From Nitrosopumilaceae archaeon (GTDB lineage: Archaea > Thermoproteota > Nitrososphaeria > Nitrososphaerales > Nitrosopumilaceae), in the NCBI GenBank assembly GCA_965203465.1, contig CBDBCR010000003.1, positions 928,263 to 992,262 of the forward strand: DNA of 64,000 nucleotides, read 5' to 3'. Under the pieces are notes generated by a model, which did no database searches, was not told where the DNA came from, and saw only the letters and a program-made list of their open reading frames with translations. Shown in pieces: positions 8,723-44,937 of this stretch (position 1 is the first letter of the stretch; each line of letters opens with the position of its first letter). The position numbers and the translations under genes are program-made.

Positions 8723-8924
8723 TGACCGGCAGACCCTGTATCAAATCTTATCTGGGAGGGGAGCATGGCTCTCCGAGATGGGCCCGAGAGTTGAACTATT
8801 CTTACCCCGCATGAGGGTGACCGGCAGACCCTGTATCAAATCTTATCTGGGAGGGGAGCATGGCTCTCCGAGATGGGCCCGAGAGTTGAACTATTCTTAC
8901 CCCGCATGAGGGTGACCGGCAGAC
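8723..8924 (+). repeat. Exact 95-bp tandem duplication (2 copies + 12 bp) in the IS110 non-coding left end; candidate bridge RNA region
   Basis: TGACCGGCAGAC recurs at 8723, 8818 and 8913 with identical sequence between. Confidence 0.9.
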
Positions 8925-9033
8925 TAACTCACAACAATAGGCGGACGGGGTACTACCCCACAGAGGGTGAATGGGAGCTTTCCGCTCAATCGGGCAAATC
9001 CACAAATCCAATGGCTTCGAAGGAGGTGACACA

Positions 9034-10107: not shown

Positions 10108-10180
10108 GCACACACTCGTTTGCAGTGGCCCGTCAATCCGGGAAGATTTGATATGGGAGAATAGGCAGCTAATCTAAATA

Positions 10181-25160: not shown

Positions 25161-27253
25161 ATCGTCTCATAGATATACCCTTTGGGCCACTTGGAGGCGA
25201 ACGTGACTTTGCCGTCCTCCAGAAACCACACGTTCTCGTCCTCAAAGAAGCTGTTTCTCCACCTAATGTCCGAATCCCATTCCTCGTTCTCCCGGAACCA
25301 GGCGGTCTGGCCGTCGAGCGCGTCGACGAACACGTCCACGTTGACTTCGTGCGCGCGGTTGAATATGTGTTGGTGGTACGGCACGTAGGGCGCCTTGTCC
25401 ATGCCGGCAGAGTCTATCCAGCCCGCGGGAGTGATGCGGATTTCCGTGTTGTCCTCCCAAATTTGCCTGCACAGCGACGGATCGTCCACCCAGTCATCCA
25501 GTTGCCCGTCTGTCATATCCCACCGCGCGTCGACTACTGCGTGACTTTCTTCCATAGTGATCAGATCTTCGCGTGAAGCTATTTTGCCTGCGTGGCACAG
25601 GTCGTGGCGCACCTCGCAAGCCCCCATGTCCACGACCCAGAACGGCGCGCCGGCCACCTGATCCAGATAGACGTGCCGGGGCCGGTCCTCGGCCGACCTG
25701 TCCTGAACGGACAGGCCGCACTCGGGGCCGGACAGCACCTGGTCGGCCGCTGCAAACTCCAGCGCCCGCTCTATGGCCTCCGTCCGCGATACGGCCGGTT
25801 TGGGTATCGGATAGTCCGACCACCCCTCGAAATCGCCCGTCAGCCCGTCGGGTACGGGGCCAACCGATATCCACCCCGTCCCGTCGTTGTACGCTATCAA
25901 CGGAATATGGTCGGTCTCGAAGCGATCGAAGATGGCGTCTTTGTACAGGCCGTAGTTGTCGCGTACGTGCCGCACGCTGTCCGTCATTCTTTCCGGATTC
26001 AGTTCCGGGTCGCCCCGCGCATCCTGTATAAACGAGGTCACTTGCTGGACCGTCGGCCCGGTCGTCTCGTAGCGTTCCTTGAGGTCGGTGGTCTGATCCA
26101 GCACGGTCCCGTGGATCATCCCCGAGCCCCAGACTTTCCCCACGTATGGAGCCCAGTTGTCAAAGCCCATCGTATCCATGAACTCGGCGGCAAATTCCAG
26201 GCTGGTGGGCGAGCCCGGCACCGAACTGTACCTCTGGTGATGGATCTTGCCGCCGTCCAGCCCGTTGTGAGCCGTGAACCAGCCGTCGCGCACATGCCAC
26301 TTGTACTCGTATTGGTCGGCGTGAAAGTCGAAATCGTCGCCCGCAACCGGCAGCCCGGAACCCCGCCACCGCGCGTTTTCAAAACCGGCGCCCAGCGCCG
26401 CCGGAAGCCAGTCGTATTCGTCGCCGGACAGGACGTACGGATCAGAGCCGATGATAAGGTGCGTGTGTATTTCCGGCCCCAGCGCGCCGGCGAGCCTCGG
26501 CAGCAGCTCGTCGAGTTCGGCCTTTGTGGCCGTGGACCAGTAGCCGGTGCGGTCCGGATCCACCATTATCGTGGTGCGGATCGGCTCGCCTTTGAAATAC
26601 GCAAGAAACACCAGCGGCTCGCGCTCTTTGGGCGGGGGCACGTCCGAGACCACGAAGCACTTGCCGTGCTTGGAGCACTGCGCCCCGTGCAGGCCCGCGT
26701 AGGTTTCCGACGAGGGCGAGACGGCGTAGCACTGTTCCCAGACGCACTCGAGCCGCTCGCCCGTTTCCGGATGCTGGATGGCTGGCTTGAAGTCGGGCGC
26801 AGGCACCAAGGCGTGCGCCTTGACTTGGGCAGAACCCTTCTCGGGCTTACCAGTCAGGTCTGCGAGCGCGCCGTCGTATACAGCAGGGGCGTCCGCGTGG
26901 CCGTATCTTTCGGAACGCTGGATTATCTCCAGGTCCAGCCGGTCGGCGGTAGCAGGCCTCAGGCACGCGGCGCCGGAGGCGCGCATGACCAGCACCAGGC
27001 CCTCGTTGCAGAGCACCTCGTCCGGCGCCGCGCCCGCCTCTTCCTGCGCCAGAGGCGAGGCCAGCTGGGCACCGGACTGCGAGAGTGCCAGCAGCGCGGA
27101 TAACGCCGCGCACGAGGCCAACGCCTTCAACGAGTCGGCCGGGGCGCGCCGCGATATAATGTATTCCGAGGTTTTGTACGGCCTGCCTGCGCGCCCGGCA
27201 TTGTGCCCAGAGCCCGCGCCGGCGGGCGCGGCGCCGCCTAGATCGGAAGCCAC
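25133..27253 (-). CDS. Hypothetical secreted protein; start probably downstream of 27253
   Basis: Hydrophobic segment followed by VLCNEGLVLVMRASGAACL, a Cys-pair motif I recognise from thaumarchaeal exported proteins; abuts the next gene. Confidence 0.7.
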   Translation of the reverse strand: MASDLGGAAPAGAGSGHNAGRAGRPYKTSEYIISRRAPADSLKALASCAALSALLALSQSGAQLASPLAQEEAGAAPDEVLCNEGLVLVMRASGAACLRPATADRLDLEIIQRSERYGHADAPAVYDGALADLTGKPEKGSAQVKAHALVPAPDFKPAIQHPETGERLECVWEQCYAVSPSSETYAGLHGAQCSKHGKCFVVSDVPPPKEREPLVFLAYFKGEPIRTTIMVDPDRTGYWSTATKAELDELLPRLAGALGPEIHTHLIIGSDPYVLSGDEYDWLPAALGAGFENARWRGSGLPVAGDDFDFHADQYEYKWHVRDGWFTAHNGLDGGKIHHQRYSSVPGSPTSLEFAAEFMDTMGFDNWAPYVGKVWGSGMIHGTVLDQTTDLKERYETTGPTVQQVTSFIQDARGDPELNPERMTDSVRHVRDNYGLYKDAIFDRFETDHIPLIAYNDGTGWISVGPVPDGLTGDFEGWSDYPIPKPAVSRTEAIERALEFAAADQVLSGPECGLSVQDRSAEDRPRHVYLDQVAGAPFWVVDMGACEVRHDLCHAGKIASREDLITMEESHAVVDARWDMTDGQLDDWVDDPSLCRQIWEDNTEIRITPAGWIDSAGMDKAPYVPYHQHIFNRAHEVNVDVFVDALDGQTAWFRENEEWDSDIRWRNSFFEDENVWFLEDGKVTFASKWPKGYIYETIWLTDEMIR

Positions 27254-27274
27254 GGTAGACGGTCTGGTAGTCGC
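27212..27274. repeat. 63-bp direct repeat, copy 1 (copy 2 at 36891-36953)
   Basis: 56/63 identical; core GATCGGAAGCC.CGGT.GACGGTCTGGTAGTCGC. Confidence 0.85.
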
Positions 27275-27348
27275 ACCGGGGTTAGGATTCGGTGTGCATC
27301 CTGCAACGAGAGTTCATCCAGTCTTGCTTCTGAGATGGGGTTATTGGA

Positions 27349-28350
27349 CTAACTGCCAGACGGATCGCTCCTATTGGAGACATACGGCCCAAGGAATCTC
27401 TCGCCGTCAAAATGAATCATGTGGTCTGGCTCGTCTGCTATCCACACGTCCGTCTCCCAAGATATGTGCTTGAAGTATTTCAGCATGGCCTCTTTGTTAA
27501 GAAACGCGGTAACGTACACTATGCCTACAGTCGAATGGGCAAACAGCTTTTGCAGTTCTTGCCGCCGGGTCGGATCTATCGGCCCGTGGCTTGTCACTGC
27601 CTCTACCACGATCAGCCAGTCGTTTTTTGTGTCGTGTATGATTACATCTGGAATCTTGCCGTGCGGCTTGATCGTGATGCCGAGCTTCTGGAGACCGCTT
27701 CTGTCGTGGTATCCGGATTTTCTGGCAGTATCCCCCACCAGAAGAGCGGTTCCGCCCGGAACAAACCTGCTTCCAAAATCACAGCAGATCTTCCTAACCA
27801 GCACGTTTTGTCCGCCGGGCGACAGCTTTAGCGTCGTACCGTCGGGCATCCGTAGCGGGATCTTGTTCATCGTGCGCCTCATGGAATACTCCTCTTGCAG
27901 CGACTTGTGGGATTTTTTGTATTCTGCAAGATTGTGACTCCATCTGCGCGTCCCAAAGCTCCGGATTAGGCGTAGCACGTCGCCCTCGATTTGGTATACG
28001 GTCTTGCCGCTGTTGGTTGGCCTGTCGGGCTTGTCGGGGTTTTCAAGCACAATTGAAGCCTGTAGGAATTGATGCACCGTCTGCTTTCTTACGGTCTCGC
28101 GGCTGTTTGGCGCATACTTTCTGCCGTATCTTTTACGAAAGAATTCAAGCATCGGGGTTATCCCCACGAGCGGGTTGCCCGCCATCGTCCACGATTCGTT
28201 TGCCCCCAGTCCCAACAACGCCAGCAACGTGAGTGCGGATCTGTCGTTTTGCTGTCGCCGCCCGAATCCTATCTGGCGCAGGATCTCAACAGCTTCCCGG
28301 ATTCTCATGCGTATGTCCGCATCCGACGGTTCGCCTGCGCCTTTGCTCAA
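27349..28350 (-). CDS. BsuBI/PstI-family type II restriction endonuclease
   Basis: QQNDRSALTLLAL, YAPNSRETVR, LSPGGQN, HGKIPD..EAVTSHGP, ISWETDVW...PDHMIHFDG. Confidence 0.95.
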   Translation of the reverse strand: MSKGAGEPSDADIRMRIREAVEILRQIGFGRRQQNDRSALTLLALLGLGANESWTMAGNPLVGITPMLEFFRKRYGRKYAPNSRETVRKQTVHQFLQASIVLENPDKPDRPTNSGKTVYQIEGDVLRLIRSFGTRRWSHNLAEYKKSHKSLQEEYSMRRTMNKIPLRMPDGTTLKLSPGGQNVLVRKICCDFGSRFVPGGTALLVGDTARKSGYHDRSGLQKLGITIKPHGKIPDVIIHDTKNDWLIVVEAVTSHGPIDPTRRQELQKLFAHSTVGIVYVTAFLNKEAMLKYFKHISWETDVWIADEPDHMIHFDGERFLGPYVSNRSDPSGS

Positions 28351-29921
28351 AACAACACCCTCTCCACTACCGAGTCAACCTCTGGTTGCGAGGTAAACGT
28401 GCCGTTGCGACGGCAGTGCCTGCCGATCTCTACAATCTGGGCGCGTTTTGGGTACCGGAGGTACCTCAGATCCGTGGCGTTTACTTGTGTGTTGCCGTTG
28501 AACTGCCTGAAATACGCGTCCACCAGTGTTGAGTTCAGAAATGCGGCCAAGCCCAACGCCGTAAGAGGTTTTAGTGGGCCTCCTCCTACGTGGAAATAGT
28601 TCACCCTGTTCTCAAAACCCACAAGCTTTGAATCCCACGTATCGCAGGTCCAGACTGCCGCGACTACACGCCTTGCCTCCTCCACTGTGGTAAAGCGCTT
28701 TACAACCACATAGCTGCCGTTATCCACCATCATCTTGGAAGTTTCAGAATCTGCCACTATGAAATTGTGGTGCTTTTTGTGGGCGGCAGGAAACGCCACG
28801 CCGCCTATGCGTCCTCCGCTTATGTTGAGCGGCCTGACAAGCGGAACGACGGCACGGCGATCGTCCTTGGGATCAAATCGCAACTGTTTCCTTGTCCGAA
28901 AGTCTATTATTTTGCCGGTGGATACGCCCAGCCCCAGATCCTCCAACACGCATTTCATTGCCTTCATCCTGTCTGCGGTTCCGGCGTCAGCCGGACTTAT
29001 GTGTATGAACTGTTGCGGGTCGTCCTCTCTGACTACCTCTGACGCATAAACGCGCCTTGTAGTCACTTTGGTCTCTGGACCACTGCTGGACGAGATTGTG
29101 ATCAGGCCGCCGCGTTTCCTGTCAGAGCTGCCGTTTTTTCCACCGCCCGTCCCAACGGCAGAAACGATCACGTTTTCCTGTAGTACGGAATCATCTCGAA
29201 AGGGGGAGGTGCGCAGGCCAAACAGGTGTATCTTTCTCAGGCGGACAGATTCTAGCAGACTTCTTCTGAATCCGCAGAAGTACGCCCCGTTGCAGAAGCT
29301 CCTCGGCGATATGAATGCAAGCTGCCCGCCGATGCGCAGCATCCTGCACGCTACGGCGATAAACGCGGCGTACTTGTTTGGTACCGGCGTCATCCCCATA
29401 TCCTGCACGGCGCGGTACATGTCAGACTTTACGCCAATCTTTCCGTATGGCGGATTCATGATTATGTGTGTGAATCTGCCTAGCCTGCTCGTCTCCGTCA
29501 TGTCTCCGCACCCAGACACAAAGTCCCGGTTTTCCAACCTGTACGCAAAGTCGATCCCCGCCTCACGGCACTGATCACTGGCCATCTCGAGGGACTCCCG
29601 GAGCCTTCCTAGAAGCGTCCCGTCTATCTCGTAGGCCGTCACCGACACTCTGTCGGGTTTTTTGCCTGCATTTCCGGCGCAAATCTTCTCGATGCAGGCG
29701 GCGAAGAGAGTTCCGACGCCAGCTCCTGGATCTAGCAGTTCTATCTCCCTTTGCCGTCCGTACGTCATCATGGATGCCATGAGCCGGGCAAGCGGCGCGC
29801 TTGTAAAATATTGATCTAGCCGCTCTTTCTTTTGCAGACCCACATCCAGCATTGTGCGTCTTACAGAATCAGCGTAATCAAGCGCGCCGCCGGCCAGATT
29901 TTGTCGCATAGCCAGAGTCAT
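28347..29921 (-). CDS. BsuBI/PstI-type (Eco57I domain) N6-adenine methyltransferase
   Basis: QYFT, LLDPGAGVG, IMNPPY, PRSFCNG, FNGNTQVNATDL; 4-bp overlaps with both neighbours. Confidence 0.95.
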   Translation of the reverse strand: MTLAMRQNLAGGALDYADSVRRTMLDVGLQKKERLDQYFTSAPLARLMASMMTYGRQREIELLDPGAGVGTLFAACIEKICAGNAGKKPDRVSVTAYEIDGTLLGRLRESLEMASDQCREAGIDFAYRLENRDFVSGCGDMTETSRLGRFTHIIMNPPYGKIGVKSDMYRAVQDMGMTPVPNKYAAFIAVACRMLRIGGQLAFISPRSFCNGAYFCGFRRSLLESVRLRKIHLFGLRTSPFRDDSVLQENVIVSAVGTGGGKNGSSDRKRGGLITISSSSGPETKVTTRRVYASEVVREDDPQQFIHISPADAGTADRMKAMKCVLEDLGLGVSTGKIIDFRTRKQLRFDPKDDRRAVVPLVRPLNISGGRIGGVAFPAAHKKHHNFIVADSETSKMMVDNGSYVVVKRFTTVEEARRVVAAVWTCDTWDSKLVGFENRVNYFHVGGGPLKPLTALGLAAFLNSTLVDAYFRQFNGNTQVNATDLRYLRYPKRAQIVEIGRHCRRNGTFTSQPEVDSVVERVLF

Positions 29922-31708
29922 GCGTCTTCAAACCCCGCAAGAAATTTGCTTATGCGATCGTTGGCGTCGGGAAGCTGCACCGGAATAGGAAGCCCGTCTA
30001 TTCCAGTCGCGCTGTGGCTTATCAGCAGCCACTGGCCAGCGCTAAAACGCAACGACTCTTGGATGGTGTCGTCTGACAGGCCAAACGCCTCCTGTATCTT
30101 TTCGCGGTCTGATGCACGTGGAAGCTTGCTGACGAAGTAGGTGTGGGGTTGCCCCAAGATGTTCGTGTCTAGATACACTATTCTCTGCGTTGCTATGCCT
30201 ATGCCTAGCCCGTACTTTCTCCCTCTTCTTGCCAGCTGTTCTGCTGTCTGCTTGGACTCTTTCATTCCGGGTTGTCTGTCGTCTTGCGCTATGAATTGAT
30301 CTGCCTCATCATAAACGAAAGACACGGGGGGAGATATTATTCCGTCCCTCCTTCTGCTGTCGAGCATCGTGTTTCCAAGTTTGCGTGAAAACATGCGCAC
30401 CTCGCTGTCGTCGCCATCCTGTATTATGTATAGCGCCCCGGTGCCGGATCCGTTTAGATTGTCCGTCATCTGCTCAATCGTGATCTTGAATTTGTCGCGT
30501 ATGTTTTCACTTGTTCTCAACCGATTACGGTGCGATTCAAGCTCGCGCTTAAGTTTTTTCCTGAGCTCTTCCGCCTTTGCCGCGCTAGTCGTGGGCATCT
30601 GGTATTCGTCTATCTGATTTAAGAGACTAGTGATGCTTTGTACAGTAACAGAGCCTGTGGTTGTGTTACGCTGAACGTGCGCAATGAACTGGCTCTTAGC
30701 CTGAGACTGCTGTCCGGTTGACTCATCGACTATACCCGAGACTAGATTGCTCAATGACTCGCTACCAGAGATCGCAAGCGCCTTTAGCTTTCCCTCGCGT
30801 AGTATTTTCCGTATTGGGCCAACGAACTTTTCTCGCTGTGTTGCAAGCATTTTTGGCAGAATCGTGGTCTTGACAATGTCGTTCGCCGCCGTATCTAGGT
30901 TTTTGTCGGTAGGGTCACTCCAGAACGCAGCTACCGATCTTGGAACAGCGCGATCTGAAAGGAACACCACGCATGCGTCTGCTCTGGCAGACAGTACATC
31001 GATCAAGAGCGCGCTGTACTCGCCCATCAGATCGTAGATGACGATTTTTGCCGAATTGCCTGCCTTGGAGGACACCTTGGACGCAACGGTGCTGAGAAGA
31101 TTGGACTTTCCGGCATTGGTATATGCGAACACGCCGAAGTGTGTGCGAATCATGCTGTCCCAGATGGCAAGTATGTCCACGTCTTTGGAATTTGTAAGAT
31201 TGCCCACTGTTATGACTTCGTCAGTGCGTTTTTGCAGGTCGTGGTTGATTATACGTCTAGTCCACTCGATGTCCAAGACTCTCACCCTTTCTCCGGGCAT
31301 TGGCATGTTGCTTTCCCGAGCCATTGCGGGTTCGCCTCCAGTCAATCTCGGCTTTCTTATCTCAAAGGTGCTCGGTATCGCATCGCATTCTATCTTTGTT
31401 GTGTCCTCTATAGGGCGATCCTGTTCCCAGTCCTTAGAGGCGCTCATGGCGGCCTCTTCCACGAATCCTGGATATCCGTCCTTGCCGGCCATCATGGCGT
31501 AGTGCCTTGGCATGATCGATGTTATTCGCATTACGCTGTAGCGATCCTCTTCGTCGGTGCTAGCAAAATTCTTCACCGCTATCAAGGATCCCTCGCGTAT
31601 CCTCCCCATGTGATTTCGCACGAACGGAAACCACACAACAAAACCGAGTTTGGTCTGGTCGGATTTTTTTATGTCCATCAACGTGCCTTGAATATCGTCC
31701 TCAAACAT
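29918..31708 (-). CDS. HerA-like ATPase/translocase
   Basis: HAS-barrel-like N-terminus, variant Walker A AYTNAGKS, YDLMGEY, VYDEAD, ARRGRKYGLG..ATQR; SD GGAGG. Confidence 0.9.
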   Translation of the reverse strand: MFEDDIQGTLMDIKKSDQTKLGFVVWFPFVRNHMGRIREGSLIAVKNFASTDEEDRYSVMRITSIMPRHYAMMAGKDGYPGFVEEAAMSASKDWEQDRPIEDTTKIECDAIPSTFEIRKPRLTGGEPAMARESNMPMPGERVRVLDIEWTRRIINHDLQKRTDEVITVGNLTNSKDVDILAIWDSMIRTHFGVFAYTNAGKSNLLSTVASKVSSKAGNSAKIVIYDLMGEYSALLIDVLSARADACVVFLSDRAVPRSVAAFWSDPTDKNLDTAANDIVKTTILPKMLATQREKFVGPIRKILREGKLKALAISGSESLSNLVSGIVDESTGQQSQAKSQFIAHVQRNTTTGSVTVQSITSLLNQIDEYQMPTTSAAKAEELRKKLKRELESHRNRLRTSENIRDKFKITIEQMTDNLNGSGTGALYIIQDGDDSEVRMFSRKLGNTMLDSRRRDGIISPPVSFVYDEADQFIAQDDRQPGMKESKQTAEQLARRGRKYGLGIGIATQRIVYLDTNILGQPHTYFVSKLPRASDREKIQEAFGLSDDTIQESLRFSAGQWLLISHSATGIDGLPIPVQLPDANDRISKFLAGFEDA

Positions 31709-31717
31709 GCCTCCACA

Positions 31718-33607
31718 CTACCTCCCGAAACTGTTCCTTATCTCCCTGAGCGTCTTTATAAGCGGACGGGACCTGAACTTTATCTCAGAACTGTCCAAAA
31801 GTTTCTTGACACTGTCGCGCATGGATTTTGCTCCCTGATCTGCTTTGTGCAGCGGATCCGGGTATCCGATCATTTCAGCAAAATGGTTTTTTGTAAGAGT
31901 GTCCAGCAGAAAGTACGTCACCAGTTGGCCTATGTTCTGTTCTTTGTTTGTGGGATGGAACAGAGGGGACATTGTGCCCAGTTCTAAAGTATCTATATTG
32001 ATTGCCTGAGCCTTGCCATCCCATTCTTGAAACGTCAATCTGTCGATGAATATGGCGTGGCCTGTGAGCGGGGACTCGGTATGGCGCCTAGTGTAAAACT
32101 GCCCGATCGACCTCATGAACAAACGCTCCGGCCGAGTAATGCCGGTAAACGTGCCTCCCAATCTAACACTGCCATTCTCAAGCCCGGTGCGAAGCGTCAT
32201 GAACGTAGAGTCAAACTCGATTGAACCCCATGGGCTAGTCAAGCCGTCGTCCAGGTACGGCAGCAGCTCGCACAACATCCTGTCCGTGGGGGGCAGTGCG
32301 CCAAAACTTTTTTCCGACAATTCGCGATATTGTCCCAAGTATCTGCACACTCCCAGATAGTTTTTGGTAAGGTATGTTGATGCAGAATCTTTTGCTATGC
32401 CTATGAGGAGTATTTTCCTGTTCCAGCACTCTTCCACTAGTGCCCGCAGACCGACTGCTATGAGGAACCTGACGTCATCGGGCGCCATCCATCGAGTCGT
32501 GGTTTTGGCGTCATGGTCACGTATCTTGTACTTTAAGGCGTCTGGGCGCTTGTCAAGAAATATTGCCTTGCACATTCCCTGGAACATCGACTTTGTTCGC
32601 TCCCAGCTCTCATACGGATTCACCTTTGTCCTTATGGTGTTGTCGGCGCCGTTAAAGGCGATGATGCCGTCAGAATCAAGCCGGTTGACGATACTGCGCA
32701 GTCTTTTGATGTCAAGTATGCCCGTCTTGCTGCCAAGATCTTCCATTTTAATCGTTTGTGATTGGTGTGGGTACTCGTGCATGAACTTGATCACGGCAAA
32801 CCTTTGCGAGAACTTTTTCCCACTCGGTATACCCATCCCTGTGTTAAAAGGATGTGCTTGTGCCACTGCTACATCACGTTTTTCCAACACACTGCCATCA
32901 GATAACACGCATCCCTGCAACCGTACTTTGTCCGGTGAAAAATCCGTATATCCCAACATTCCGCTCAGGCTGTTGTCCATCAGTATTATGTTTGGACCAT
33001 CTAGATTGGAGCTTGTGGCCACGTTGTATGCCAAGAACACCTCGGCAAGTTGCATAATCGGCAGATGCATGCTACTCAATTCTATTCTGTCTTCCTCCGA
33101 TATCACAAACTGGTTGTCGTCTCGTCCAGCTGGGAGGCCGAACGCAGGGTCTCGGCGGTCTTCCTCAGATACCATAGACCTGTTGTCATCTTCGACTTCA
33201 GCCAGCCGGTTGTAGGGTATGGGTACAAATGCTACCATGCTCACGTCTTTTTCTATCTCCCACCTCTTGTATTCCACCGTAGCCTTGCCTCCCAAGACTG
33301 TCAGCATCCCCTTTGCTCCGTATGCCCCCCCATAAAACGACACGAACTCATTTGATTTGTGTTTGTGACAGCTGCCGTCTACAGCCACGAAGTTCAACTC
33401 GCGCTTTCCAAAAAACTTCTCAGCTTCTTCCGCTATTGTTTCACGAAAGTCTCTGTCTTCGAGTCTTTGGCCCATGTTGATCACAAGATCCCTGAAGAAA
33501 TGGGTATAAAACTCGCGTGCGTTGGAGGATGTCGTACGTAGCGATTCCTCGTATTGATCCTGCGCCAGATCCAAGCTTTTCTTGTATGACGAATAAATGT
33601 CCGACAT
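31718..33607 (-). CDS. NurA-like nuclease with probable internal wHTH insertion
   Basis: VAVDGS, LAE, ILMDNSL, IGIAKDS, GYPDPLHKAD motifs; directly upstream of herA; start uncertain (33607 or 33637). Confidence 0.85.
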   Translation of the reverse strand: MSDIYSSYKKSLDLAQDQYEESLRTTSSNAREFYTHFFRDLVINMGQRLEDRDFRETIAEEAEKFFGKRELNFVAVDGSCHKHKSNEFVSFYGGAYGAKGMLTVLGGKATVEYKRWEIEKDVSMVAFVPIPYNRLAEVEDDNRSMVSEEDRRDPAFGLPAGRDDNQFVISEEDRIELSSMHLPIMQLAEVFLAYNVATSSNLDGPNIILMDNSLSGMLGYTDFSPDKVRLQGCVLSDGSVLEKRDVAVAQAHPFNTGMGIPSGKKFSQRFAVIKFMHEYPHQSQTIKMEDLGSKTGILDIKRLRSIVNRLDSDGIIAFNGADNTIRTKVNPYESWERTKSMFQGMCKAIFLDKRPDALKYKIRDHDAKTTTRWMAPDDVRFLIAVGLRALVEECWNRKILLIGIAKDSASTYLTKNYLGVCRYLGQYRELSEKSFGALPPTDRMLCELLPYLDDGLTSPWGSIEFDSTFMTLRTGLENGSVRLGGTFTGITRPERLFMRSIGQFYTRRHTESPLTGHAIFIDRLTFQEWDGKAQAINIDTLELGTMSPLFHPTNKEQNIGQLVTYFLLDTLTKNHFAEMIGYPDPLHKADQGAKSMRDSVKKLLDSSEIKFRSRPLIKTLREIRNSFGR

Positions 33608-33934
33608 CTTTCCCAATTTGATAGCCGTCGCCAGCATGTAATTATTAAGATTTGGGTAGCCGTCATAAGTGGCGCTGTTACGAATTCGTGGGTCGGACAC
33701 GGATTTGTAGGTATAAGCCGCCTTAAATAGGGATGGCCCAGATGAGGGCCCGCCCACGCCGGATCCGCCCTGAATGGAAGCGGGGCAGCGGCTGGTTCCG
33801 GCGGCGGGTGTTGCCTGATCGCACTGGACGAGCCGCCGGACGCGCTGCGGGCAATGCAAGTCCGTCCTAGGCGTCGGACGGAAGGGGTGAGCGTATATCA
33901 CGGGACCCATGTGGCCTCTTCCTGTCGTAAGCAG

Positions 33935-34948
33935 TCACGAGTGTCCCATCTGCTCATCTAGATGCTCGATGATCTGCTTGCCGAGAACAAGTGCAAAAAG
34001 CGGCGGAACCGCATTGCCTATCTGGTTTAGGGCGCTGGTTTTGGAACCAGAAAAACAAAACCTATCCGGAAAGCTCTGAAGTCTTGACGCCTCTATGCCG
34101 TACAATAGACGCCTTTTGCCGTTGCGTGTTACTATTCGGTGCATGTCACTTGATCGTCCTGCCAAGTTCCGACATGTCAGCGTCCTAGCGGGTCTATTCA
34201 TATGTAGGTCGCGCGGTCTGACACACTTTGACACACTTTCGTATACTGCGATGTAGCGATCCATGCTTGGTGTTAGGTACTGCGGTTTCTCACGCCTTGA
34301 GGCGGGAATGTTTCTTAGAGCCTCGCCAGCTGTCACCGGAGAATTAATGCTACAGATCCCGGCAGGATAATCAAACTTCCCGCCACGGCTACCCACCACT
34401 ATAATCCGTTCCCTGTTTTGTGGCACTCCATAATCGGCACAGTTGACGACCTGCGCGCTTATCCGGTATCCCAGCCTCTGAAGCTTTGTAACAGTCTTCT
34501 CGAAGTACTGCCTGTTGCGGTACGTTAGGCCTTTCACGTTTTCAAACACAAACATTCTCGGCACGATCTTCCTTACCGCGCTGACGAACGCAGGTATGCC
34601 GTTGCGCCCGTCAAGGATCCCCATCTGCCTGCCGCGAACACTGAATGGCTGGCATGGAGGGCCGCCTACGATTATGTCGGCGCGCGGAAAGTCGTATTTG
34701 GGTGTGACAAACTCTTTGATGCAGTGTCCTGCCAAGTTGGCGTTGTACGTATCACAACAGTCTGGGTCGCAGTCTATCCCGGTTACTGCAAGGCCGGCGG
34801 TCTCCAGTCCGAGTGAAAGCCCACCCGCACCCGCATATAGATCCAGAGCTGTGTAGGCAGATCTTTTTCTTCTGGACGGTTTGAACAGCCTGTCAACCTC
34901 CATCGCATAGTTGTCCTTGATGGCCTGTGGACCGTTCCCAGATTTCAT
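33935..34948 (-). CDS. C5-cytosine DNA methyltransferase
   Basis: DLYAGAGG, GGPPCQPFS, FENV, PQNRER, RLQSFP, IGNAVPP; start moved to ATG 34948. Confidence 0.95.
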   Translation of the reverse strand: MKSGNGPQAIKDNYAMEVDRLFKPSRRKRSAYTALDLYAGAGGLSLGLETAGLAVTGIDCDPDCCDTYNANLAGHCIKEFVTPKYDFPRADIIVGGPPCQPFSVRGRQMGILDGRNGIPAFVSAVRKIVPRMFVFENVKGLTYRNRQYFEKTVTKLQRLGYRISAQVVNCADYGVPQNRERIIVVGSRGGKFDYPAGICSINSPVTAGEALRNIPASRREKPQYLTPSMDRYIAVYESVSKCVRPRDLHMNRPARTLTCRNLAGRSSDMHRIVTRNGKRRLLYGIEASRLQSFPDRFCFSGSKTSALNQIGNAVPPLFALVLGKQIIEHLDEQMGHS

Positions 34949-35311
34949 TTGTGTGGTCTGGCCTGGTAACGGTATGTTAAACCTTCTGCAGAATCCGGGG
35001 TTGCCGCATAATTCCCCAGAATGACGGATTCCGGCGCGCCTGAGTCCCAGCGCCCGCAAGGGGGCCGCGCAGATCGGTTTTTTCCGACAAACGGTCAATT
35101 CTTTCCGACCGCTACGCTTATTGATCACGGCCATAACCGCCCGCCGTTGAAGCAGCAACGGCGGGCCGGCTACTGGCCAGGCTACCACGCGTCGCGTGCC
35201 TCAAAAGATTTCGTCGTCGGCTGCGTCAAGGATCTTGTGATTAAAAAAACCGCCGCCCGAGCCTGTTCGCAAGAGCCGCCGCGGCAGGCCTAAGGTGTAC
35301 CCGGTGCCGAA

Positions 35312-36141
35312 ATGGCCATCGTGTGCGTCCTTATGAACCACTTCAACCTCTCGTCCTACGAAGCCGAGAACGCGGCGGCGTCTTGGGATCTGGATCTGAA
35401 CGGACTCGTTCCGGACAATACGACTATTCTGAGGGCGCACGCGGATCTCTACATGCAGTGGTTCGAAGACATGGTGGCCGAGACTGCCAACGCGTGCCTA
35501 AAAAAAGGCCGGGATCGGCGAGGCAAGCGAGATCGACACGGCGGCGGACAGCACCGGCGCGGAGACCGACGGGTACGAAGACAGGGCGAAGCTGGACAAA
35601 AAGACCGGCAAAGAGACCGTCGCGCGCAAAATCGTACCGGAAATGACACGTTTTCGCGGTGCTGAAGCTGCAGGTAATCCTCTCGTGCGCGATGACGCCG
35701 GGCAACGTGGCCGACACCGACATGCTGCCTCCGCTTCTTGAAAAGGCCAAGAAAGTGGGGCGCAGTTTCGCCGGCTGGTGGCTGCACGCCGACAGGGGAT
35801 ACGACTCGGATCGGAACTGCAAGTCCGCCTTCGAGATGGGCATGCACCCCAACATCGACCAGAGGAGGAGCAGGGAGAACAGCGGCAACAGGCGCAACGT
35901 CGGCAAGCGGTTCCGCCGCAGGGCCGTGGCCCTGTTCGATCGGTGGCGCTACCGGAAGCGCAGGATGGTCGAGGGCATATTCGGGGCCGGGGAGACGCGC
36001 GCCCACCGGCTGCTCTGCCGGTACAGGAGAAAAGAGACGCAGAAGAGGTTCTGCATGCTGCTCGCGATAACGTGGAACATGCGCCCGCTCAACCGGATCC
36101 GGTGCGCCGCGGAAACTGCCGCCGCGCCGGCGTCGGGGTAA
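35312..36141 (+). pseudogene. IS5/IS4-superfamily DDE transposase, frameshifted
   Basis: VADTDML, HADRGYDS, YRKRRMVEGIFG signature; N-terminal part in other frames. Confidence 0.75.
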
Positions 36142-36890
36142 TCTGCAAGGGCCCGGACGGGCCGGAAACGGCCCTCCGAGGGAATCAGGCCGACCCGCCT
36201 GTAGCCGGACCTTCGAAACGACGGAATCCGTCGCTTTGGGCGATTCGCGGGGGAATTATGCGGCAACCCCGCAGAATCCAGTCAACCCAAAAGTACCCTG
36301 GCGGAGCCCGGAAAGCGATCGCCGGCAGGGCCCACCGAAAGATCCAAAAAGGCCGTCTTGGACGACGCCTCAACCTACATGAAGAGGAACCGCCCGGGAC
36401 GAGCTCGGAGGAGCGACCGCCCCATGTATGAGCTGGTGACGGGCATGTTCGTCGAGGCGGCAGGCTGCGCCGGGTTCTCGGTCGCGCCCAACGCCAGATA
36501 CGGCCCCAAAGACTTGCCCGCTGCGCTCCGCGCTGACGGCGATGCCGTTCTTTCTGTAGTCCGGATCCGGGCCGCCCGGCTGATCCGACAAGACGGCCCA
36601 AGACGGGCGGGGACGCTGCGCGCTGCGGCGGCCGAGTTCGTGCCTGCGCCCCCGTCCGGGCGGCGACGCGGGCGCCGGGCAGCCCGGGCCGCGCCCGGAA
36701 CGGGACCGGACGAGCCAGTCTTTCTGACGCCGCTGCCGTTTTGCCCATTTTGGCCGCGTTTGCGATCGGAAATTATCCGCCCGCCGGAGGAACTTTTGGG
36801 TTGGCTGGAATCCAGACCCCGACACTGGCGGATTCTGGAGTCGTTCGCGTCTGACTGAATGTGACCTCAACCGCCCCTAGACATCCCACC

Positions 36891-36953
36891 GCCCGCGCCG
36901 GCAGGCGCGGTGCTGCCCGGATCGGAAGCCGCGGTGGACGGTCTGGTAGTCGC
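36891..36953. repeat. 63-bp direct repeat, copy 2
   Basis: Matches 27212-27274 at 56/63. Confidence 0.85.
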
Positions 36954-37044
36954 CTAGCCCGGACTCGCGTCCACAGCGACAAAAACTGGGCCGCAGGACT
37001 ATATTCCCGTGGAGCCGTTAGATCAAGTAGCCACATGGCTACTG

Positions 37045-37446
37045 CTAGACGTGGCCCCGCACTATCCGCAGGATGCGACGCATGCACACGCCCGGCCTCC
37101 GCTCTATGTCGTGCTCCCACAAGCGAACCACCGAATACCCTTCGCGCCTAAGCCTGCATGTGACATGACTGTCCCACCTCATGTTTCCCTCTATCTTGTC
37201 GCGCCAGTACCTCTGCTGTGGCCTCCTGCCGTCGTAGTTGTAGCCGTGCCAAAAGTCCCCATCGCAGAACACCGCCACGCGGTCGCCCGCCAGAAAGTCC
37301 GGCCGGCCGAAGATGTTAGGGTGCCGGGTAAACCGGATCCCAGCCCCTCTCAGCATTCTGCCCACCTCAAGCTCGATCTTGGTGTTTTTCCAGCGGATCC
37401 GAGACATTACGTAGCTGCGCTTCTCCGGCGAGAACATGTCCGCCAT
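37045..37446 (-). CDS. vsr: Vsr endonuclease
   Basis: MADMFSPEKRSYVMSRIR, GRPDF, FCDGDFWHG, VRLWEH. Confidence 0.93.
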   Translation of the reverse strand: MADMFSPEKRSYVMSRIRWKNTKIELEVGRMLRGAGIRFTRHPNIFGRPDFLAGDRVAVFCDGDFWHGYNYDGRRPQQRYWRDKIEGNMRWDSHVTCRLRREGYSVVRLWEHDIERRPGVCMRRILRIVRGHV

Positions 37447-37452
37447 GGTGGC

Positions 37453-38661
37453 CTACCTGATCATCCTTTTCACGCTTTTGGCCACCGCCAGCGCCAGCAG
37501 AGGCGGCACCGCGTTTCCCACCTGCCGGAACTGCGCAGACCGGGATCCATGGAATACAAAGCTGTCCGGGAAGCCTTGGAGCCTGGCGGCCTCGCGGACC
37601 GAGACCGTCCGGTTCTGCGTCGGGTGTATGTACATGTACCCGTCCTTGCCCAAGTGTGCGTTTACCGTCCATGACGGCCTGTCCAGTGGCAACCTCTTCC
37701 ACTTGTCATCAAACGAGTCGTTGCTGTACCCGATCTTGCGCCTGTCCGCGCCTGAAAGCTCAGACCATTTGCTGCCCGGCCTCATGTGCCTGAAGACACA
37801 CAGGTCCTTTTTTCGGTGCCACCGAGTCACGTTGTTGTGCAACTCGCCCGAGTTTCCCCTTGCCCACCTCTGGAACGCGCATGCGGGGCCGCGCCCATAC
37901 GTGCGGACATAGTCCGTCCGCTTGGAGTGTTTGGGGGACGGCCGGAGTACCGGCATATCTCCTAACGCGTCCCGCACCGTTACATGCCAGCTAGCTGCCT
38001 TTCGGCGCCGCGTCGTTTTCTGGTCCGCCGAAAAGTGCGTAGGTTCTGGCCATGCCACCGCGGCCCGCCTGCGAGTCGCGACGAAGAACAGGCGCCTTCG
38101 CAGCTGCGGCACCCCAAAGTCTGTCGCGCTGAGCAGCCTGTATTCAATGTTCCGGTACCCGACGCCGGCAAAGTCCTCCCTGATCTGCTCCACCACCCGA
38201 CCGTTCCTGTAGCTCATCATGCCCGGTACGTTCTCCATCACGACCGCCTTGGGACGGAACTCCCTGACAAACCCGACGAACGACTTGTACAGACCGTTGC
38301 GCCTGTCGTCTATAAAGCGAGCGCGTGAGCTTCTCCCGCTGCGCTGGCCGTTCTTCACCAAGGACGCGATCTTGGTCCTCCCGATGGTGCTGAACCCCTG
38401 GCACGGCGGGCCCCCTATTATCACATCTACATCCCCTCTTCTCAGCCCCGACGCTTCTTGGAACCTTTCCACGTAGCCCGGCGATCCCGCGTCCGAGCGC
38501 ACTATGCTGTCCCGTGAGACCGTGGGGAAGTTTCGCCGGTAGGTCTCAAGCCCGTCCTCAAAGATATCTAGCATTCCGACAGGACGCATTCCCGCAAGGC
38601 TGAACCCTAGGCTCATTCCGCCCGGGGCGCCGAACAGGTCAACGAATGTGGGCCGGGTCAC
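37453..38661 (-). CDS. C5-cytosine DNA methyltransferase
   Basis: DLFGAPGG, GGPPCQGFS, MENV, PQLRRR, IHPTQNRTVSVREAARLQGFP, GNAVPP. Confidence 0.95.
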   Translation of the reverse strand: MTRPTFVDLFGAPGGMSLGFSLAGMRPVGMLDIFEDGLETYRRNFPTVSRDSIVRSDAGSPGYVERFQEASGLRRGDVDVIIGGPPCQGFSTIGRTKIASLVKNGQRSGRSSRARFIDDRRNGLYKSFVGFVREFRPKAVVMENVPGMMSYRNGRVVEQIREDFAGVGYRNIEYRLLSATDFGVPQLRRRLFFVATRRRAAVAWPEPTHFSADQKTTRRRKAASWHVTVRDALGDMPVLRPSPKHSKRTDYVRTYGRGPACAFQRWARGNSGELHNNVTRWHRKKDLCVFRHMRPGSKWSELSGADRRKIGYSNDSFDDKWKRLPLDRPSWTVNAHLGKDGYMYIHPTQNRTVSVREAARLQGFPDSFVFHGSRSAQFRQVGNAVPPLLALAVAKSVKRMIR

Positions 38662-44319: not shown

Positions 44320-44937
44320 ATGGATGACACCGGCATCCACGGAGTGGACTAGATCGTGCAGAAGTCGATGGCGAAGATCCCGAAGGAAGATCCCGACATG
44401 CTTACGCCAGAAACCGTGCCGAACCTGCTCTTGGACGCGGTAGAGGCCATCGGCGGGGTCAGAGAACTGGGGAAGATCTTCGAGCAGTCCAGAGCATCCC
44501 GGGCGGACAAGACCCTCGATAAGATCGTGCAGGATCTGCTGACGCTAGCTGGAATACCCAGCGAGGCGGTGACCCGTGGCGACAAAAAGTACAATCTAGA
44601 CAGGATCAGCTTGGTGATGCCGGACAGGCAGACGGCCGTCGACAACCCCAAGGCACATTTCCTCTCGCTCAAGACTTCGCTGAGTGGGCACTGGAAGCAG
44701 GCGGTCGAAGAACGTCAGCTTGGGCAGAAGACCCACATGATCACCGTCCTTCAGGGAAAGACGTTGGGCAACAACGTGGCGTGGGGGATCGTCAAGCACG
44801 GGATATTCCTGTACCTGCTGGACATGGTAGAGACTGCTTCCCGGACTAGCCGCGGATCAGAAAGCTGTTGGATCTGCCCTTCGCCGTGGACAAATACATT
44901 GACCCGGGCAGAGCGCCGGCTCGATAGTCTCGAATGA
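44320..44937 (+). pseudogene. EcoRII-like endonuclease pseudogene, paralogue of 3443-4192
   Basis: TAG at codon 11, internal deletions, RER replaced by SGH, 3' frameshift; upstream promoter region also homologous to ~3385-3443. Confidence 0.8.

Follow-up and report, generated by a model that had tools for sequence, protein, structure and literature searches.

What is a NurA-HerA pair doing among DNA methylase and restriction genes, and with which of these neighbours does it work? The question arises at positions 27349-34948 of the window, the stretch of 64,000 nucleotides analysed here. The sequence-only reading of this locus had proposed a cut-and-resect defence system, in which a BsuBI/PstI-type restriction endonuclease (REase) makes ends in unmethylated invader DNA and a dedicated HerA-NurA pair degrades them. 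Our analyses showed that the locus is a mobile cassette of ~7.7 kb, in which five minus-strand genes are intact and code for a C5 methyltransferase (MTase), a NurA-like and a HerA-like protein, an N6A MTase and a BsuBI/PstI REase (Table 1).

Table 1. Features of the five-gene cassette and of the repeats within and around it, in window positions
Feature	Position	Strand	Details
Direct repeat of ~70 bp, left copy	27206..27274	+	bounds inserted segment 27275-36884
BsuBI/PstI-family type II REase	27349..28350	-	333 aa from TTG 28350 / 319 aa from ATG 28308
N6-adenine DNA methyltransferase of BsuBI/PstI-type RM pair	28347..29921	-	524 aa; PF07669 Eco57I 3.4e-10
HerA-like hexameric-type translocase ATPase	29918..31708	-	596 aa; DUF87 1.4e-14
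NurA-like nuclease	31718..33607	-	~629 aa; alternative ATG 33637 gives 639 aa
Winged-helix insert of NurA-like protein	32621..32824	-	residues 272-339
Repeat of ~130 bp in the 300-bp C5 MTase/nurA spacer	33765..33897		blastn
C5 cytosine DNA methyltransferase	33935..34948	-	337 aa from ATG 34948; PF00145 1.2e-56, TIGR00675 1.2e-50
1.27-kb repeat element	35000..36272		between cassette and right direct repeat
Direct repeat of ~70 bp, right copy	36885..36953	+	alignment to left copy

The order of the five genes on one strand of a lower-GC block, as first described, is confirmed by the ORFs, the Pfam and PADLOC matches and the base composition, with a GC content of 0.49-0.58 over 27-35 kb versus 0.61-0.69 in the flanks and, gene by gene, of 0.51-0.55 versus 0.64-0.67 for the neighbours. 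The coordinates also agree with the 9-bp gap between nurA and herA and the 4-bp overlap of herA with the N6A MTase gene. A similar 4-bp overlap claimed for the MTase and REase genes exists if the REase begins at its TTG codon, but not if it begins at the first ATG. The C5 MTase gene and nurA are ~300 bp apart, with a ~130-bp repeat in the spacer, which has four further copies in the genome (75-83% identity, blastn) and within which one contig of run X6 (record 22) has 101 other letters at 33770-33783. In the corresponding cassettes of two other genomes (L001 and L002), the spacer measures only ~30 bp. Lastly, two scans of window ORFs (10 and 29 proteins) detected no Mre11 or Rad50 domain, as the sequence-only reading had noted.

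All five genes move together, within an insertion that has a direct repeat of 70 bp on either side, the two copies matching at 86-87%. A 9,122-nt contig of run X6 spans 27005-34995, contigs of run X9 have loose ends at 27274, where the left repeat ends, and contigs of other runs depart from the window sequence at 34995, 34996 or 35014. No RNA run contains this stretch. Alignment showed that the right repeat continues like a paralogous locus on contig C1. The 1.27-kb repeat element has at least seven long copies elsewhere in the genome, at 79-87% identity, and a 2-kb query over this region gave 51 genomic matches in all; its ORFs have no Pfam match. The five-gene cassette recurs in the same order in L001 and L002 (50-67% identity). 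Relatives of the NurA-like protein are rare, being found in 3 of 300 further genomes of the taxonomic family and in none of four of the genus.

The genome has its own nurA-herA-mre11-rad50 operon ~700 kb from the cassette (G000, contig C3, 253410-259724), coding for a NurA (PF09376, 1.1e-8), a HerA (DUF87, 4.6e-23), a Mre11-like phosphoesterase and a Rad50-like SMC ATPase. The cassette pair is therefore accessory, as proposed initially. Our analyses showed that it is one of a rare and distinct group of such pairs, a family separate from the canonical operon of the host.

The reading frame of nurA extends over 730 aa. Since homologues begin at residues 8-11 of the 639-aa form, whose numbering is used hereafter, the start is likely ATG 33607, giving ~629 aa, in line with the oversized NurA of the sequence-only reading. 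The family is small and labelled 'hypothetical' in databases; the protein has no match to PADLOC models and scores 19.5 bits with Pfam NurA, under the 21-bit cut-off. Its AlphaFold2 model (pLDDT 87.3) was compared with known structures using VIA-align. It aligns with Sulfolobus (S. solfataricus) NurA 2ygk_A over 311 of 319 residues (Z 20.4, rmsd 3.4), with Tko NurA (Z 15.2) and with chain G of TdpAB (Z 12.9, 273 residues). Residues 272-339 of the model resemble the winged-helix (wHTH) domains of IclR, MarR, DsrD and Zalpha proteins (Z 8.0-8.8, rmsd 1.6-2.7, VIA-align), and positions 226-330 of the family profile match SarA/MarR/Lrp-type regulators (E 9e-4 and weaker). Thus, the fold of the modelled protein is truly that of NurA, and it contains a winged-helix insert, which structure comparison and family profile both confirm as suspected from the sequence. 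Residues D87 (in a DG motif), E199, D221, K416, D417, D452 and D476 are invariant across 41 family members, and an LxxADxxxAK motif is found at the place of NurA motif III as given in a review (PMC13748450).

The AlphaFold2 model of the HerA-like protein (pLDDT 87.9) is closest to S. solfataricus HerA 4d2i_A (Z 27.5), tied with T. kodakarensis HerA, SIR2-HerA, DUF4297-HerA and TdpA (8wfd_A, Z 26.7, 450 residues). At the sequence level, no match to TdpA was found at E 0.01. The protein matches the PADLOC model PDLC01055 ('HerA, Type III coevolved') over its full length at 2.8e-67, and one relative does so at 2.6e-107; its matches to the PADLOC HerA models of SIR2, DUF4297 and Dnd systems are far below (E 1e-22 and weaker). 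The Walker A GKS, the Walker B DEAD and a TQR motif are invariant or nearly so among 71 full-length family members. The AYTNAGKS motif is indeed present, but it is not the variant Walker A that it had been taken for, as it fits the classical P-loop [AG]x4GK[ST]; GKS is found in 71/71 members, 64 of which start the motif with G and 7 with A.

Of the modification enzymes, the C5 MTase shows PCQ and ENV motifs and shares 60% identity with the counterparts that L001 and L002 encode at this position, and 49% with that of L015. The N6A MTase is of the Eco57I type, with a visible NPPY motif, and matches the PADLOC models MTase_II PDLC03227 (1.1e-130) and the fused MTase-REase PDLC03359 (1.8e-103). 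The REase combines BsuBI_PstI_RE (PF06616, 6.2e-55) with an N-terminal HTH domain (PF17728, 4e-47) and matches REase_II PDLC03420 (1e-124). The genome shows no avoidance of CTGCAG (observed/expected 0.83). The window harbours further RM genes, namely those for EcoRII-C, MT-A70 with a PvuII-like gene, two more C5 MTases, Vsr and a BbrUII/HgiDII-like REase, and transposases.

We then analysed the genetic environments of the 80 best among 196 relatives from metagenomes, each sharing 36% identity or more with the NurA-like protein of the window. This gave 66 unique loci after loci at least 95% identical were dropped. HerA is encoded directly downstream of NurA in 78 of the 80 loci, both misses ending 150 bp past NurA, and in 65 of the 66 unique ones. 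A DNA-modification gene was found nearby in 45/66 unique loci, a tblastn tally for which the queries were drawn from those loci themselves and in which related loci are not independent. TGT and/or DUF6884 genes lie at most 100 bp away in 26 of these unique loci and within 8 kb in nine further ones. C5 MTase genes are found in nine, one of them with a DUF6884 match 5.2 kb off and another with a type III Mod, and type III Mod/Res is the sole modification gene in one. No modification gene was detected in three unique loci with at least 2 kb on both sides and in 18 with a short flank. The recurrent linkage of nurA-herA to modification or RM genes is thus supported.

As the relatives are nearly always next to a DNA-modifying gene, these environments suggest a defence module rather than repair. 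A repair role, in which the pair would process breaks or lesions of self-DNA caused by neighbouring enzymes (self-restriction, 5mC deamination or abasic base-exchange intermediates), is very unlikely in our view. Canonical HerA-NurA is regarded as repair machinery, yet the host already has a complete operon for it, and Mre11 or Rad50 is encoded beside none of the accessory pairs seen among the best 80 of 196. Vsr adjoins the C5 MTase in eight of those loci, a HhH-GPD glycosylase is encoded at L087, one clade adjoins mutS or mutL, and a link of DUF6884 to the binding of DNA lesions has been described (PMC11701544), all of which would suit repair. Nevertheless, the cassette is rare and mobile, unlike core repair genes, and Tko HerA-NurA is described as destroying the two strands, not as producing recombinogenic tails (PMC12977600).

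The type of modification gene follows the NurA tree, with C5 methylases in the clade of the window and DpdA-type TGT and DUF6884 in others. A clade of 19 NurA rows (SH-aLRT 100) contains all 14 C5-MTase rows, namely the window and relatives among the best 80 of 196, and its remaining five rows are cut contigs. In this clade, the gene that always accompanies the pair is the C5 MTase, bracketed in the sequence-only reading. Not all of these C5 MTases are orthologous to each other (26-60% identity), and their positions and strands vary. Our survey showed that the pair adjoins DNA-modification genes across bacteria and archaea. This link is not obligate, given that one subclade of eight rows (L040/43/44/65, L055, L058, L068 and L083) and G258/L014 have none. 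Three unique loci of that subclade have full flanks, with a housekeeping-like context (mutS, a HEAT-repeat gene, an aldolase).

Such modification-free pairs could indicate that the pair acts on its own, as an end-dependent module for defence or against plasmids, and merely travels with methylase and RM genes within defence islands and mobile cassettes. The crowding of the window with RM genes and transposases fits this explanation, as does the fact that the HerA of this family was first noted beside type III CRISPR-cas, PDLC01055 being cluster 57 of Shah et al. We nonetheless consider mere co-packaging distinctly unlikely. Among the best 80 of 196, modification genes lie on the same strand at most 100 bp away in 26 Dpd-type and seven C5-MTase loci, the modification type splits cleanly by NurA tree, with one change of state across 56 labelled rows, and the core order DUF6884-NurA-HerA-TGT is constant while the outer flanks differ and are unrelated between loci.

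At the Dpd-type loci, the TGT and DUF6884 neighbours were identified with Pfam. Three TGTs match the PADLOC DpdA model (1e-95 to 1e-122), one DndB-like neighbour matches DpdB (5e-132), and a DUF6884 protein matches DpdC weakly (6e-4). QueC, QueD, YhhQ-type transporter and Q_salvage genes are also found near these pairs. In the 26 loci with DpdA-type or DUF6884 genes at most 100 bp away (best 80 of 196), NurA is the only recurrent nuclease. Conceivably, HerA with NurA might provide DpdA with ATP-driven DNA handling in place of the DpdB ATPase, and so belong to the modification rather than the restriction arm. Salmonella DpdA requires DpdB (PMC10164549), which was not seen at most Dpd-type loci of the best 80 of 196. 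However, two unique groups, L039 and L070/71, carry both DpdB and the pair, C5 methylases are accompanied by the same pair and require no helper, and the nuclease residues of NurA are invariant, making such a helper function extremely improbable.

The BsuBI/PstI-type REase of the cut-and-resect model is found in only 4/85 rows (window, L001, L002 and L015; best 80 of 196), and thus the conserved partner is the modification enzyme, not the PstI-type REase. The other elements of that model are supported, i.e. the accessory pair, its linkage to RM genes, the shared tight operon and the end-dependence of Tko HerA-NurA. In this model, the pair would be a dedicated end-processing add-on to classical RM, devoid of modification sensing; the REase would cut unmethylated invader DNA and HerA-NurA would destroy the fragments. 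The pair would then stand in for RecBCD/AddAB, which archaea lack. The 4-bp overlap of herA with the RM methylase gene, in both the window and L001, and the tightly packed C5MT-REase-Vsr-NurA-HerA genes of L015, with 4-bp overlaps, are consistent with this explanation. So is the requirement of Tko HerA-NurA for DNA termini (PMC12977600), which together with its sparing of circular dsDNA fits a cut-then-degrade logic. Among the best 80 of 196, the C5-MTase clade has 15 informative rows; a recognizable REase (BsuBI/PstI type, NgoPII or type III Res) adjoins the pair in 8 of them but is missing in the other 7, although such absences are weak evidence because REases are often invisible to Pfam. 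Furthermore, no conserved REase accompanies the modification gene at 35 Dpd-type loci and at one locus with genes of both types, the Dpd-type core loci have no recognizable REase at all, and the window cassette retains a C5 MTase that is superfluous to the PstI-type pair. We therefore hold this explanation to be possible but rather unlikely.

With moderate confidence, we favour a reading in which the pair resembles TdpAB and serves, in a defence system based on a modification mark, as the nuclease-translocase effector that depends on DNA ends. The PstI-type RM would be an addition specific to the clade and might provide such ends. The HerA ring would thread DNA from a free end and feed it to a NurA dimer, which would destroy both strands. 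The adjoining C5 methylase would mark host DNA, the NurA-HerA complex would spare marked DNA, and the winged-helix insert may read the mark. The putatively co-transcribed PstI-type RM pair would be a second layer, present only in the subclade of the window, its REase making ends in circular unmethylated invader DNA. Tko HerA-NurA is described as degrading both strands from any end and leaving circular dsDNA uncut, and its authors suggested a role in defence (PMC12977600). Similarly, Tdp is presented as a phosphorothioate-based RM-like system, with a mark made by tdpC alone (PMC12914056, PMC13223576). Several observations argue against the modification-marked reading. The C5 MTase may serve classical RM rather than NurA-HerA, as it looks like the REase's own partner in L015 and L091/92; one protein family would have to read marks as unlike as 5mC and 7-deazaguanine; and the modification-free subclade and the non-orthologous C5 MTases must be accommodated.

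Several known systems share parts of this organization. In BsuBI/PstI type II RM systems, the REase has the same two domains and its own adjoining N6A methylase, but the window RM genes share their operon with a nuclease-translocase pair and an additional C5 methylase. Archaeal HerA-NurA (PDB 2ygk, 4d2i, 9x1m) share both folds, the gene order, the close spacing, the acidic residues and the Walker motifs. In contrast, the window pair is rare, mobile and without adjoining mre11/rad50; its NurA is ~250-300 aa longer, with the wHTH insert, and under the Pfam cut-off, and its HerA is far under the NCBIfam HerA equivalog cut-offs. Gao_Her/Nezha and DndFGH similarly have a HerA ring that drives a partner effector, with tied HerA models (Z 24-27), but the partner here is a NurA nuclease and not SIR2, DUF4297 or DndFG.

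The HerA/NurA pairs that Shah et al. (2018) recorded next to type III CRISPR-cas loci (clusters 57 and 58) are represented by the full-length PDLC01055 match, which is labelled as cluster 57, and Caldicellulosiruptor, the genus from which the type gene of this cluster comes, has a member of our family. The window cassette has no cas gene, however, and the passages of Shah et al. 2018 consulted do not mention a link of these clusters to modification genes. As for the Dpd system (dpdA-K), whose restriction genes are given as dpdD-K (PMC10164549), the operons of the relatives share with it the DpdA-type TGT, the DpdC-like DUF6884, sometimes DpdB, and preQ0 synthesis or uptake genes. No TGT or Dpd gene was found among the window ORFs scanned, in contrast with that system. 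None of dpdD-K is known to code for a HerA or a NurA.

Lastly, TdpABC of thermophiles (PDB 8wfd, 8wet) also combines a HerA-like ring and a NurA-like nuclease beside a DNA-modification gene. TdpC makes backbone phosphorothioate, which reportedly blocks TdpAB, whereas the genes found here are for a C5 MTase (5-methylcytosine) and, in relatives, for 7-deazaguanine. The window NurA-like protein is nearer to canonical NurA than to TdpB, with which it shares 9% identity, and it differs by its wHTH insert.

The five genes of the cassette are intact and lie on the minus strand between 27349 and 34948, as open reading frames and Pfam and PADLOC matches bear out. The lower-GC block and close spacing described in the sequence-only reading were likewise recovered. 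GC is 0.49-0.58 inside and 0.61-0.69 around (0.51-0.55 for individual cassette genes versus 0.64-0.67 for their neighbours), nurA and herA are 9 bp apart, and herA overlaps the N6-adenine methylase gene by 4 bp. The 4-bp overlap between the methylase and restriction endonuclease (REase) genes holds with a TTG start but is lost with the first ATG, 42 bp further on. The REase has both domains of the BsuBI/PstI family and adjoins its N6-adenine methylase, as in type II RM systems of this kind. The genome contains 925 CTGCAG sites (observed/expected 0.83), which is unremarkable among 64 palindromes, and thus shows no avoidance of this sequence, a result that is neutral on the activity and specificity of the REase. 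No Rfam family was detected in 26500-37500. Between the C5 methylase gene and nurA lies a repeat of ~130 bp, with four other genomic copies at 75-83% identity; the same spacer measures only ~30 bp in the two closest relatives. With this repeat in between, nurA may be transcribed apart from the methylase gene.

Features of the cassette, its surroundings and related regions. Bare coordinates are window positions; G000 is the genome of the window, with contigs C1 and C3, and L001 is the locus of the closest relative.
Feature	Position	Strand	Match or description
C5 cytosine methylase gene	33935-34948	-	PF00145, 1.2e-56
~130-bp repeat	33765-33897
NurA-like ORF	31718-33910	-	open frame
HerA-like gene	29918-31708	-	DUF87, 1.4e-14
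N6-adenine methylase gene, Eco57I-type	28347-29921	-	PADLOC MTase_II PDLC03227, 1.1e-130
BsuBI/PstI-family REase gene	27349-28350	-	PF06616, 6.2e-55, and PF17728, 4e-47; PDLC03420, 1e-124
~70-bp direct repeat, left copy	27206-27274
~70-bp direct repeat, right copy	36885-36953
Insertion-like segment	27275-36884
1.27-kb repeat	35000-36272
~0.5-kb repeat	36280-36810
706-aa gene	25133-27253		WING-49 domain, 6e-9
Paralogue of the 706-aa gene	G000:C1:220802-222894		87-94% DNA identity
Canonical nurA-herA operon	G000:C3:253410-259724
Third DUF87 protein	G000:C1:524071-524385		open frame of 643 aa
Other RM genes of the window	3290-4192, 8002-10741, 37045-38661, 39727-43058, 44356-45965
Two small low-GC ORFs	56497-57262		144 and 101 aa
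AAA/TrwB-like protein	53326-56457		1043 aa
TIR-domain protein	L001:8058-8681		207 aa, low GC

The NurA-like protein scores just below the gathering cut-off of the Pfam NurA family (PF09376; 19.5 bits versus 21, E 7.4e-4), and NCBIfam and PADLOC scans gave no match to it. An AlphaFold2 model built from 41 sequences (pLDDT 87.3, pTM 0.89) has the RNase H-like fold of NurA, superposing on S. solfataricus NurA (2ygk_A) with Z 20.4 and rmsd 3.4 over 311 of 319 residues. Z scores were 13.6-15.2 against the Thermococcus kodakarensis and P. furiosus NurA proteins and 10.1 against that of D. radiodurans, and the top 10 Foldseek hits were NurA throughout. The wHTH insert suspected earlier corresponds to a winged helix at residues 272-339 of the 639-aa form (Z 8.0-8.8 to IclR, MarR, DsrD and Zalpha domains), and the family profile also matches SarA/MarR/Lrp regulators. 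Since homologues begin at residue 8-11 of this form, the start codon of nurA is most likely the ATG at 33607.

Residues D87, E199, D221, K416, D417, D452 and D476 are invariant in the family. NurA proteins have catalytic motifs I and II, each with a DG pair, and motif III, LxxAHxxxA+ (PMC13748450). Motif I is represented here by D87-G88, the Gly being conserved in at least 90% of sequences, while the residue after D221 is Asn or variable at the position of the motif II Gly, and the C-terminal LHKADQGAK (LxxADxxxAK) has D600 in place of the motif III His. A local hhalign alignment of the family profile with the genome's own NurA, at a probability of only 8%, places E199 and D221 on the AE and MDG of the latter. 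A complex prediction with the full-length NurA-like protein and HerA residues 1-175, run without controls, scored 0.00 and is neutral on binding.

The HerA-like protein is readily assigned to its family, with a DUF87 score of 55.2 bits versus a cut-off of 23.2, a full-length HerA fold including the N-terminal barrel, and the expected motifs. Its model (pLDDT 87.9) aligns over residues 3-586 with S. solfataricus HerA (4d2i_A; Z 27.5, 425 residues), and Z scores are tied among the S. solfataricus and T. kodakarensis HerA proteins, SIR2-HerA, DUF4297-HerA and TdpA (26.7), the HerA-like component of the Tdp defence system. The Walker A GKS, the Walker B DEAD and the arginine-finger TQR are kept in 70-71 of 71 members. 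The AYTNAGKS sequence, previously read as a variant Walker A, fits the classical P-loop pattern. The protein falls far short of the NCBIfam HerA equivalogs for repair and anti-phage functions (61.7 bits versus 800 for NF040937 and 49.7 versus 800 for NF042943). Of the library models, PADLOC PDLC01055, 'HerA, Type III coevolved', fits it best (2.8e-67, and 2.6e-107 for a relative), and this label derives from Shah et al. 2018 (their cluster 57).

The pair is accessory in this genome (2.26 Mb in 4 contigs, 96.9% complete), which has a canonical operon coding for a 375-aa NurA, a 513-aa HerA, a 417-aa Mre11-like phosphoesterase and an 801-aa Rad50-like SMC ATPase. A third DUF87 protein is encoded elsewhere. 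As noted from the sequence, no mre11 or rad50 gene lies beside the cassette pair among the window ORFs scanned. The common teaching is that HerA-NurA serves DNA repair in archaea, a view that recent work questions. With a complete canonical operon in the same genome, we consider a role in repairing self-inflicted damage improbable.

Several observations bear on mobility. A 9,122-nt contig of sequencing run X6 spans 27005-34995 with ~2-3% differences and then departs from the window sequence, and other runs have contigs with breaks at 27274 and 34996/35014. The 1.27-kb repeat next to the C5 methylase gene has at least 7 long genomic copies (79-87% identity) and many fragments; a second repeat of ~0.5 kb follows it, and ORFs in the two repeats matched no Pfam family. 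The whole segment is bounded by a direct repeat of ~70 bp with copies 86-87% alike, and the right copy continues like the paralogous locus on another contig. From this arrangement, the segment resembles an insertion into the 5' end of the gene coding for the 706-aa protein. Right at the ends of the cassette (27150-27400 and 34900-35200), no direct or inverted terminal repeats of 10 bp or more were found, the ~70-bp copies lying further out, and neither flank was found in four genomes of the same genus, hence no empty site was shown. Scans of viral contigs and tblastn searches of plasmids detected no NurA-like relatives, and thus no phage or plasmid carrier in the collections searched. The 706-aa gene has a far higher summed contig depth than the cassette in run X5. 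No RNA run is among those that contain the stretch.

Other RM genes crowd the window. They code for two EcoRII-C-like proteins; an MT-A70 methylase and a PvuII-like REase split by an IS110 transposase; two C5 methylases, the first with Vsr and the second beside an EcoRII-C-like gene; and a 697-aa BbrUII/HgiDII-like GHKL REase with a 413-aa partner that matches no family (GC 0.43-0.45). Two small ORFs beside the gene of an AAA/TrwB-like protein have a GC content of 0.34-0.38, far below the genome value of 0.65.

Relatives of the NurA-like protein are rare in its own lineage: a search that took in this genome, the closest relatives of the cassette and 300 genomes of the same family found them in 3 of the 300, each in a different genus, and in none of the 4 genomes from the window's genus. 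When 1.84 billion representatives were searched with phmmer, 225 clusters scored E 1e-3 or better, and some 40 were full length (600-640 aa). The ten clusters looked up are all called 'hypothetical protein' or nameless; the named sources are MAGs of Fimbriimonadales and Thermoplasmataceae and the cultured Caldicellulosiruptor hydrothermalis (WP_013404379.1). Our genome scan identified three loci. The Nitrosopumilus sp. and Cenarchaeum sp. records harbour all five genes in unchanged order, their proteins being 50-67% identical, and in the Desulfotomaculum record the NurA-like gene (41% identity) adjoins a DUF6884 gene. In the closest relative, a TIR-domain protein is encoded immediately upstream of the cassette.

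For a broader survey, metagenomes were scanned with a 13-row NurA-like alignment, and the best 80 of 196 relatives (36-54% identity) were tallied. HerA is encoded directly downstream of NurA in 78 of these 80 loci; the other two contigs stop 150 bp past NurA. Merging loci with NurA proteins at least 95% identical left 66 unique loci, not independent where related, 65 of which have HerA adjoining NurA. Neighbours were clustered, representatives (38, 124 and 31 proteins) were scanned with Pfam, and recurrent families were mapped back by tblastn with queries taken from the same loci, an approach that REases can escape at the Pfam step. Genes for a DpdA-type TGT and/or the DpdC-like DUF6884 occur within 100 bp in 26 of the 66 loci and within 8 kb in 9 others. 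Another 9 have a C5 methylase gene, one of them with a DUF6884 match 5.2 kb off and one with a type III Mod, and a single locus, whose contig stops at herA, has type III Mod/Res only. No modification gene was found in 18 loci with one short flank and in 3 whose flanks both reach 2 kb or more. That the pair is a helper of modification we regard as very improbable.

Some of the neighbouring TGTs are clear DpdA proteins (PADLOC 1e-95 to 1e-122), and one neighbour is a DpdB (5e-132). DUF6884 is distantly related to YaaA/DUF328, which is the DpdC family (PMC11701544, PMC12839542). Several loci have genes for QueC, QueD, a YhhQ-type transporter and queuosine salvage nearby. The recurring linkage of nurA-herA to RM genes proposed earlier was recovered in a broader sense: the pair keeps company stably with a DNA-modification gene, and the PstI-type REase is just one of several optional companions. 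We found no report of a NurA tied to a DpdA/7-deazaguanine or methylase-marked system in the open-access literature and bioRxiv main texts.

Other genes occur at particular loci. In L039, L052 and L062, an RNase_H_2 gene (PF13482, 1.4e-22; 161-162 aa) lies between the NurA-like and HerA-like genes. Genes for a UvrD-family helicase of ~790 aa and a PD-(D/E)XK/Cas4-like nuclease of ~345-395 aa come straight after herA in the extended Dpd-type loci L035, L039, L054, L061 and L070-L072, and L074 has a SIR2-ORC/CDC6-like protein at this position. The flanks of L051 code for GmrSD, an RNase T-like exonuclease, a 1972-aa DEAD-MZB helicase and a Schlafen-type helicase.

A tree of 85 NurA-like rows (IQ-TREE quick search, LG+G4, SH-aLRT support) grouped all 14 rows with C5 methylases, the window included, in a single 19-row clade with a support of 100, the remaining five being cut contigs. 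The other clades are filled by TGT/DUF6884 loci, and the C5 versus Dpd labels require one change over 56 labelled rows. As related rows share labels by descent, this pattern reflects stable co-inheritance rather than many independent events. Mere co-packaging of the pair with methylase or RM genes, which defence-rich surroundings such as those of the window could produce, appears distinctly unlikely beside such a pattern. Nested among the Dpd-type loci is a subclade of eight rows that lost its modification genes (L040, L043, L044, L055, L058, L065, L068 and L083). Its context is housekeeping-like, with mutS, a HEAT-repeat protein gene or an HpcH aldolase gene, and mutL in L068. Two further ATPases, one HerA-like and one SMC-like, are encoded upstream in L065, and a RAMP gene lies downstream in L068.

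A recognizable REase is encoded in 8 of the 15 informative rows of the window's clade. The PstI-type methylase and REase genes follow herA in the window, L001 and L002; L015 has the order C5 methylase, BsuBI/PstI-family REase, Vsr, NurA, HerA with 4-bp overlaps; L091/92 have an NgoPII REase and a C5 methylase; and L073 and L075 have type III Mod and Res. The seven other rows (L016, L076, L082, L084/85, L087 and L093) have a C5 methylase only, often with Vsr, and their small unassigned neighbours could be REases. The earlier cut-and-resect model in its pure form, in which the REase cuts unmethylated invader DNA and HerA-NurA degrades the ends, suits the first eight rows and has less to offer for the others and for the Dpd-type loci; we hold it to be unlikely.

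We infer, at about even chances, that the NurA-HerA pair is an end-dependent module for the degradation of DNA, modification-marked and joined by the RM pair as a second layer. This reading is favoured by the linkage to modification genes, the analogy with TdpAB and the end-dependence of T. kodakarensis HerA-NurA. The T. kodakarensis complex degrades the two strands of DNA starting at any terminus and leaves circular dsDNA uncut (PMC12977600); as it needs ends, the co-encoded REase would be a sensible supplier of them. More tentatively, the widespread, unnamed wHTH-NurA/HerA family as a whole might act as a restriction effector of general use whose marks can be swapped, destroying DNA from free ends unless it is marked. 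The protective mark would be written by whichever modification gene accompanies the pair, as 5-methylcytosine in the window's clade and as 7-deazaguanine, through DpdA and DUF6884, in others. If so, the Tdp principle would extend from backbone sulfur to base modifications, the Dpd-type loci would represent a minimal four-gene restriction-modification system, and the cassette would be a case from archaea in which a single operon also holds a classical type II RM. A rare, mobile second HerA-NurA tied to DNA-marking enzymes across bacteria and archaea would, if confirmed, make a testable case for a role in defence. Such a role would suggest that 7-deazaguanine systems can have a compact arm for restriction, and would add a defence system for ammonia-oxidizing-type archaea, for which we know of few characterized ones.

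Among known systems, the archaeal double-strand break repair operon differs from the cassette pair by its mre11/rad50 linkage. Gao_Her systems have a SIR2 or DUF4297 partner, whereas HerA is paired here with a NurA-like protein and no gene of the cassette matches SIR2 or DUF4297. The combination of DpdA with DpdB/DpdC that defines Dpd occurs in related loci but not in the window, where no TGT or DUF6884 was detected among the ORFs scanned. Tdp is described as a phosphorothioate-based RM-like system (PMC12914056, PMC13223576). It differs from the cassette in its adjacent phosphorothioate-forming gene tdpC, all five cassette genes having other identities, and no match between TdpAB and the cassette pair was found at the sequence level. 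Nevertheless, the predicted structures of the pair resemble both HerA-like TdpA (8wfd_A, same Z as given for TdpA) and NurA-like TdpB (8wfd_G, chain G of the TdpAB complex; Z 12.9). On this structure comparison of models, TdpAB is the closest worked-out analogue of the cassette pair, likewise a HerA-like protein with a NurA-like partner.
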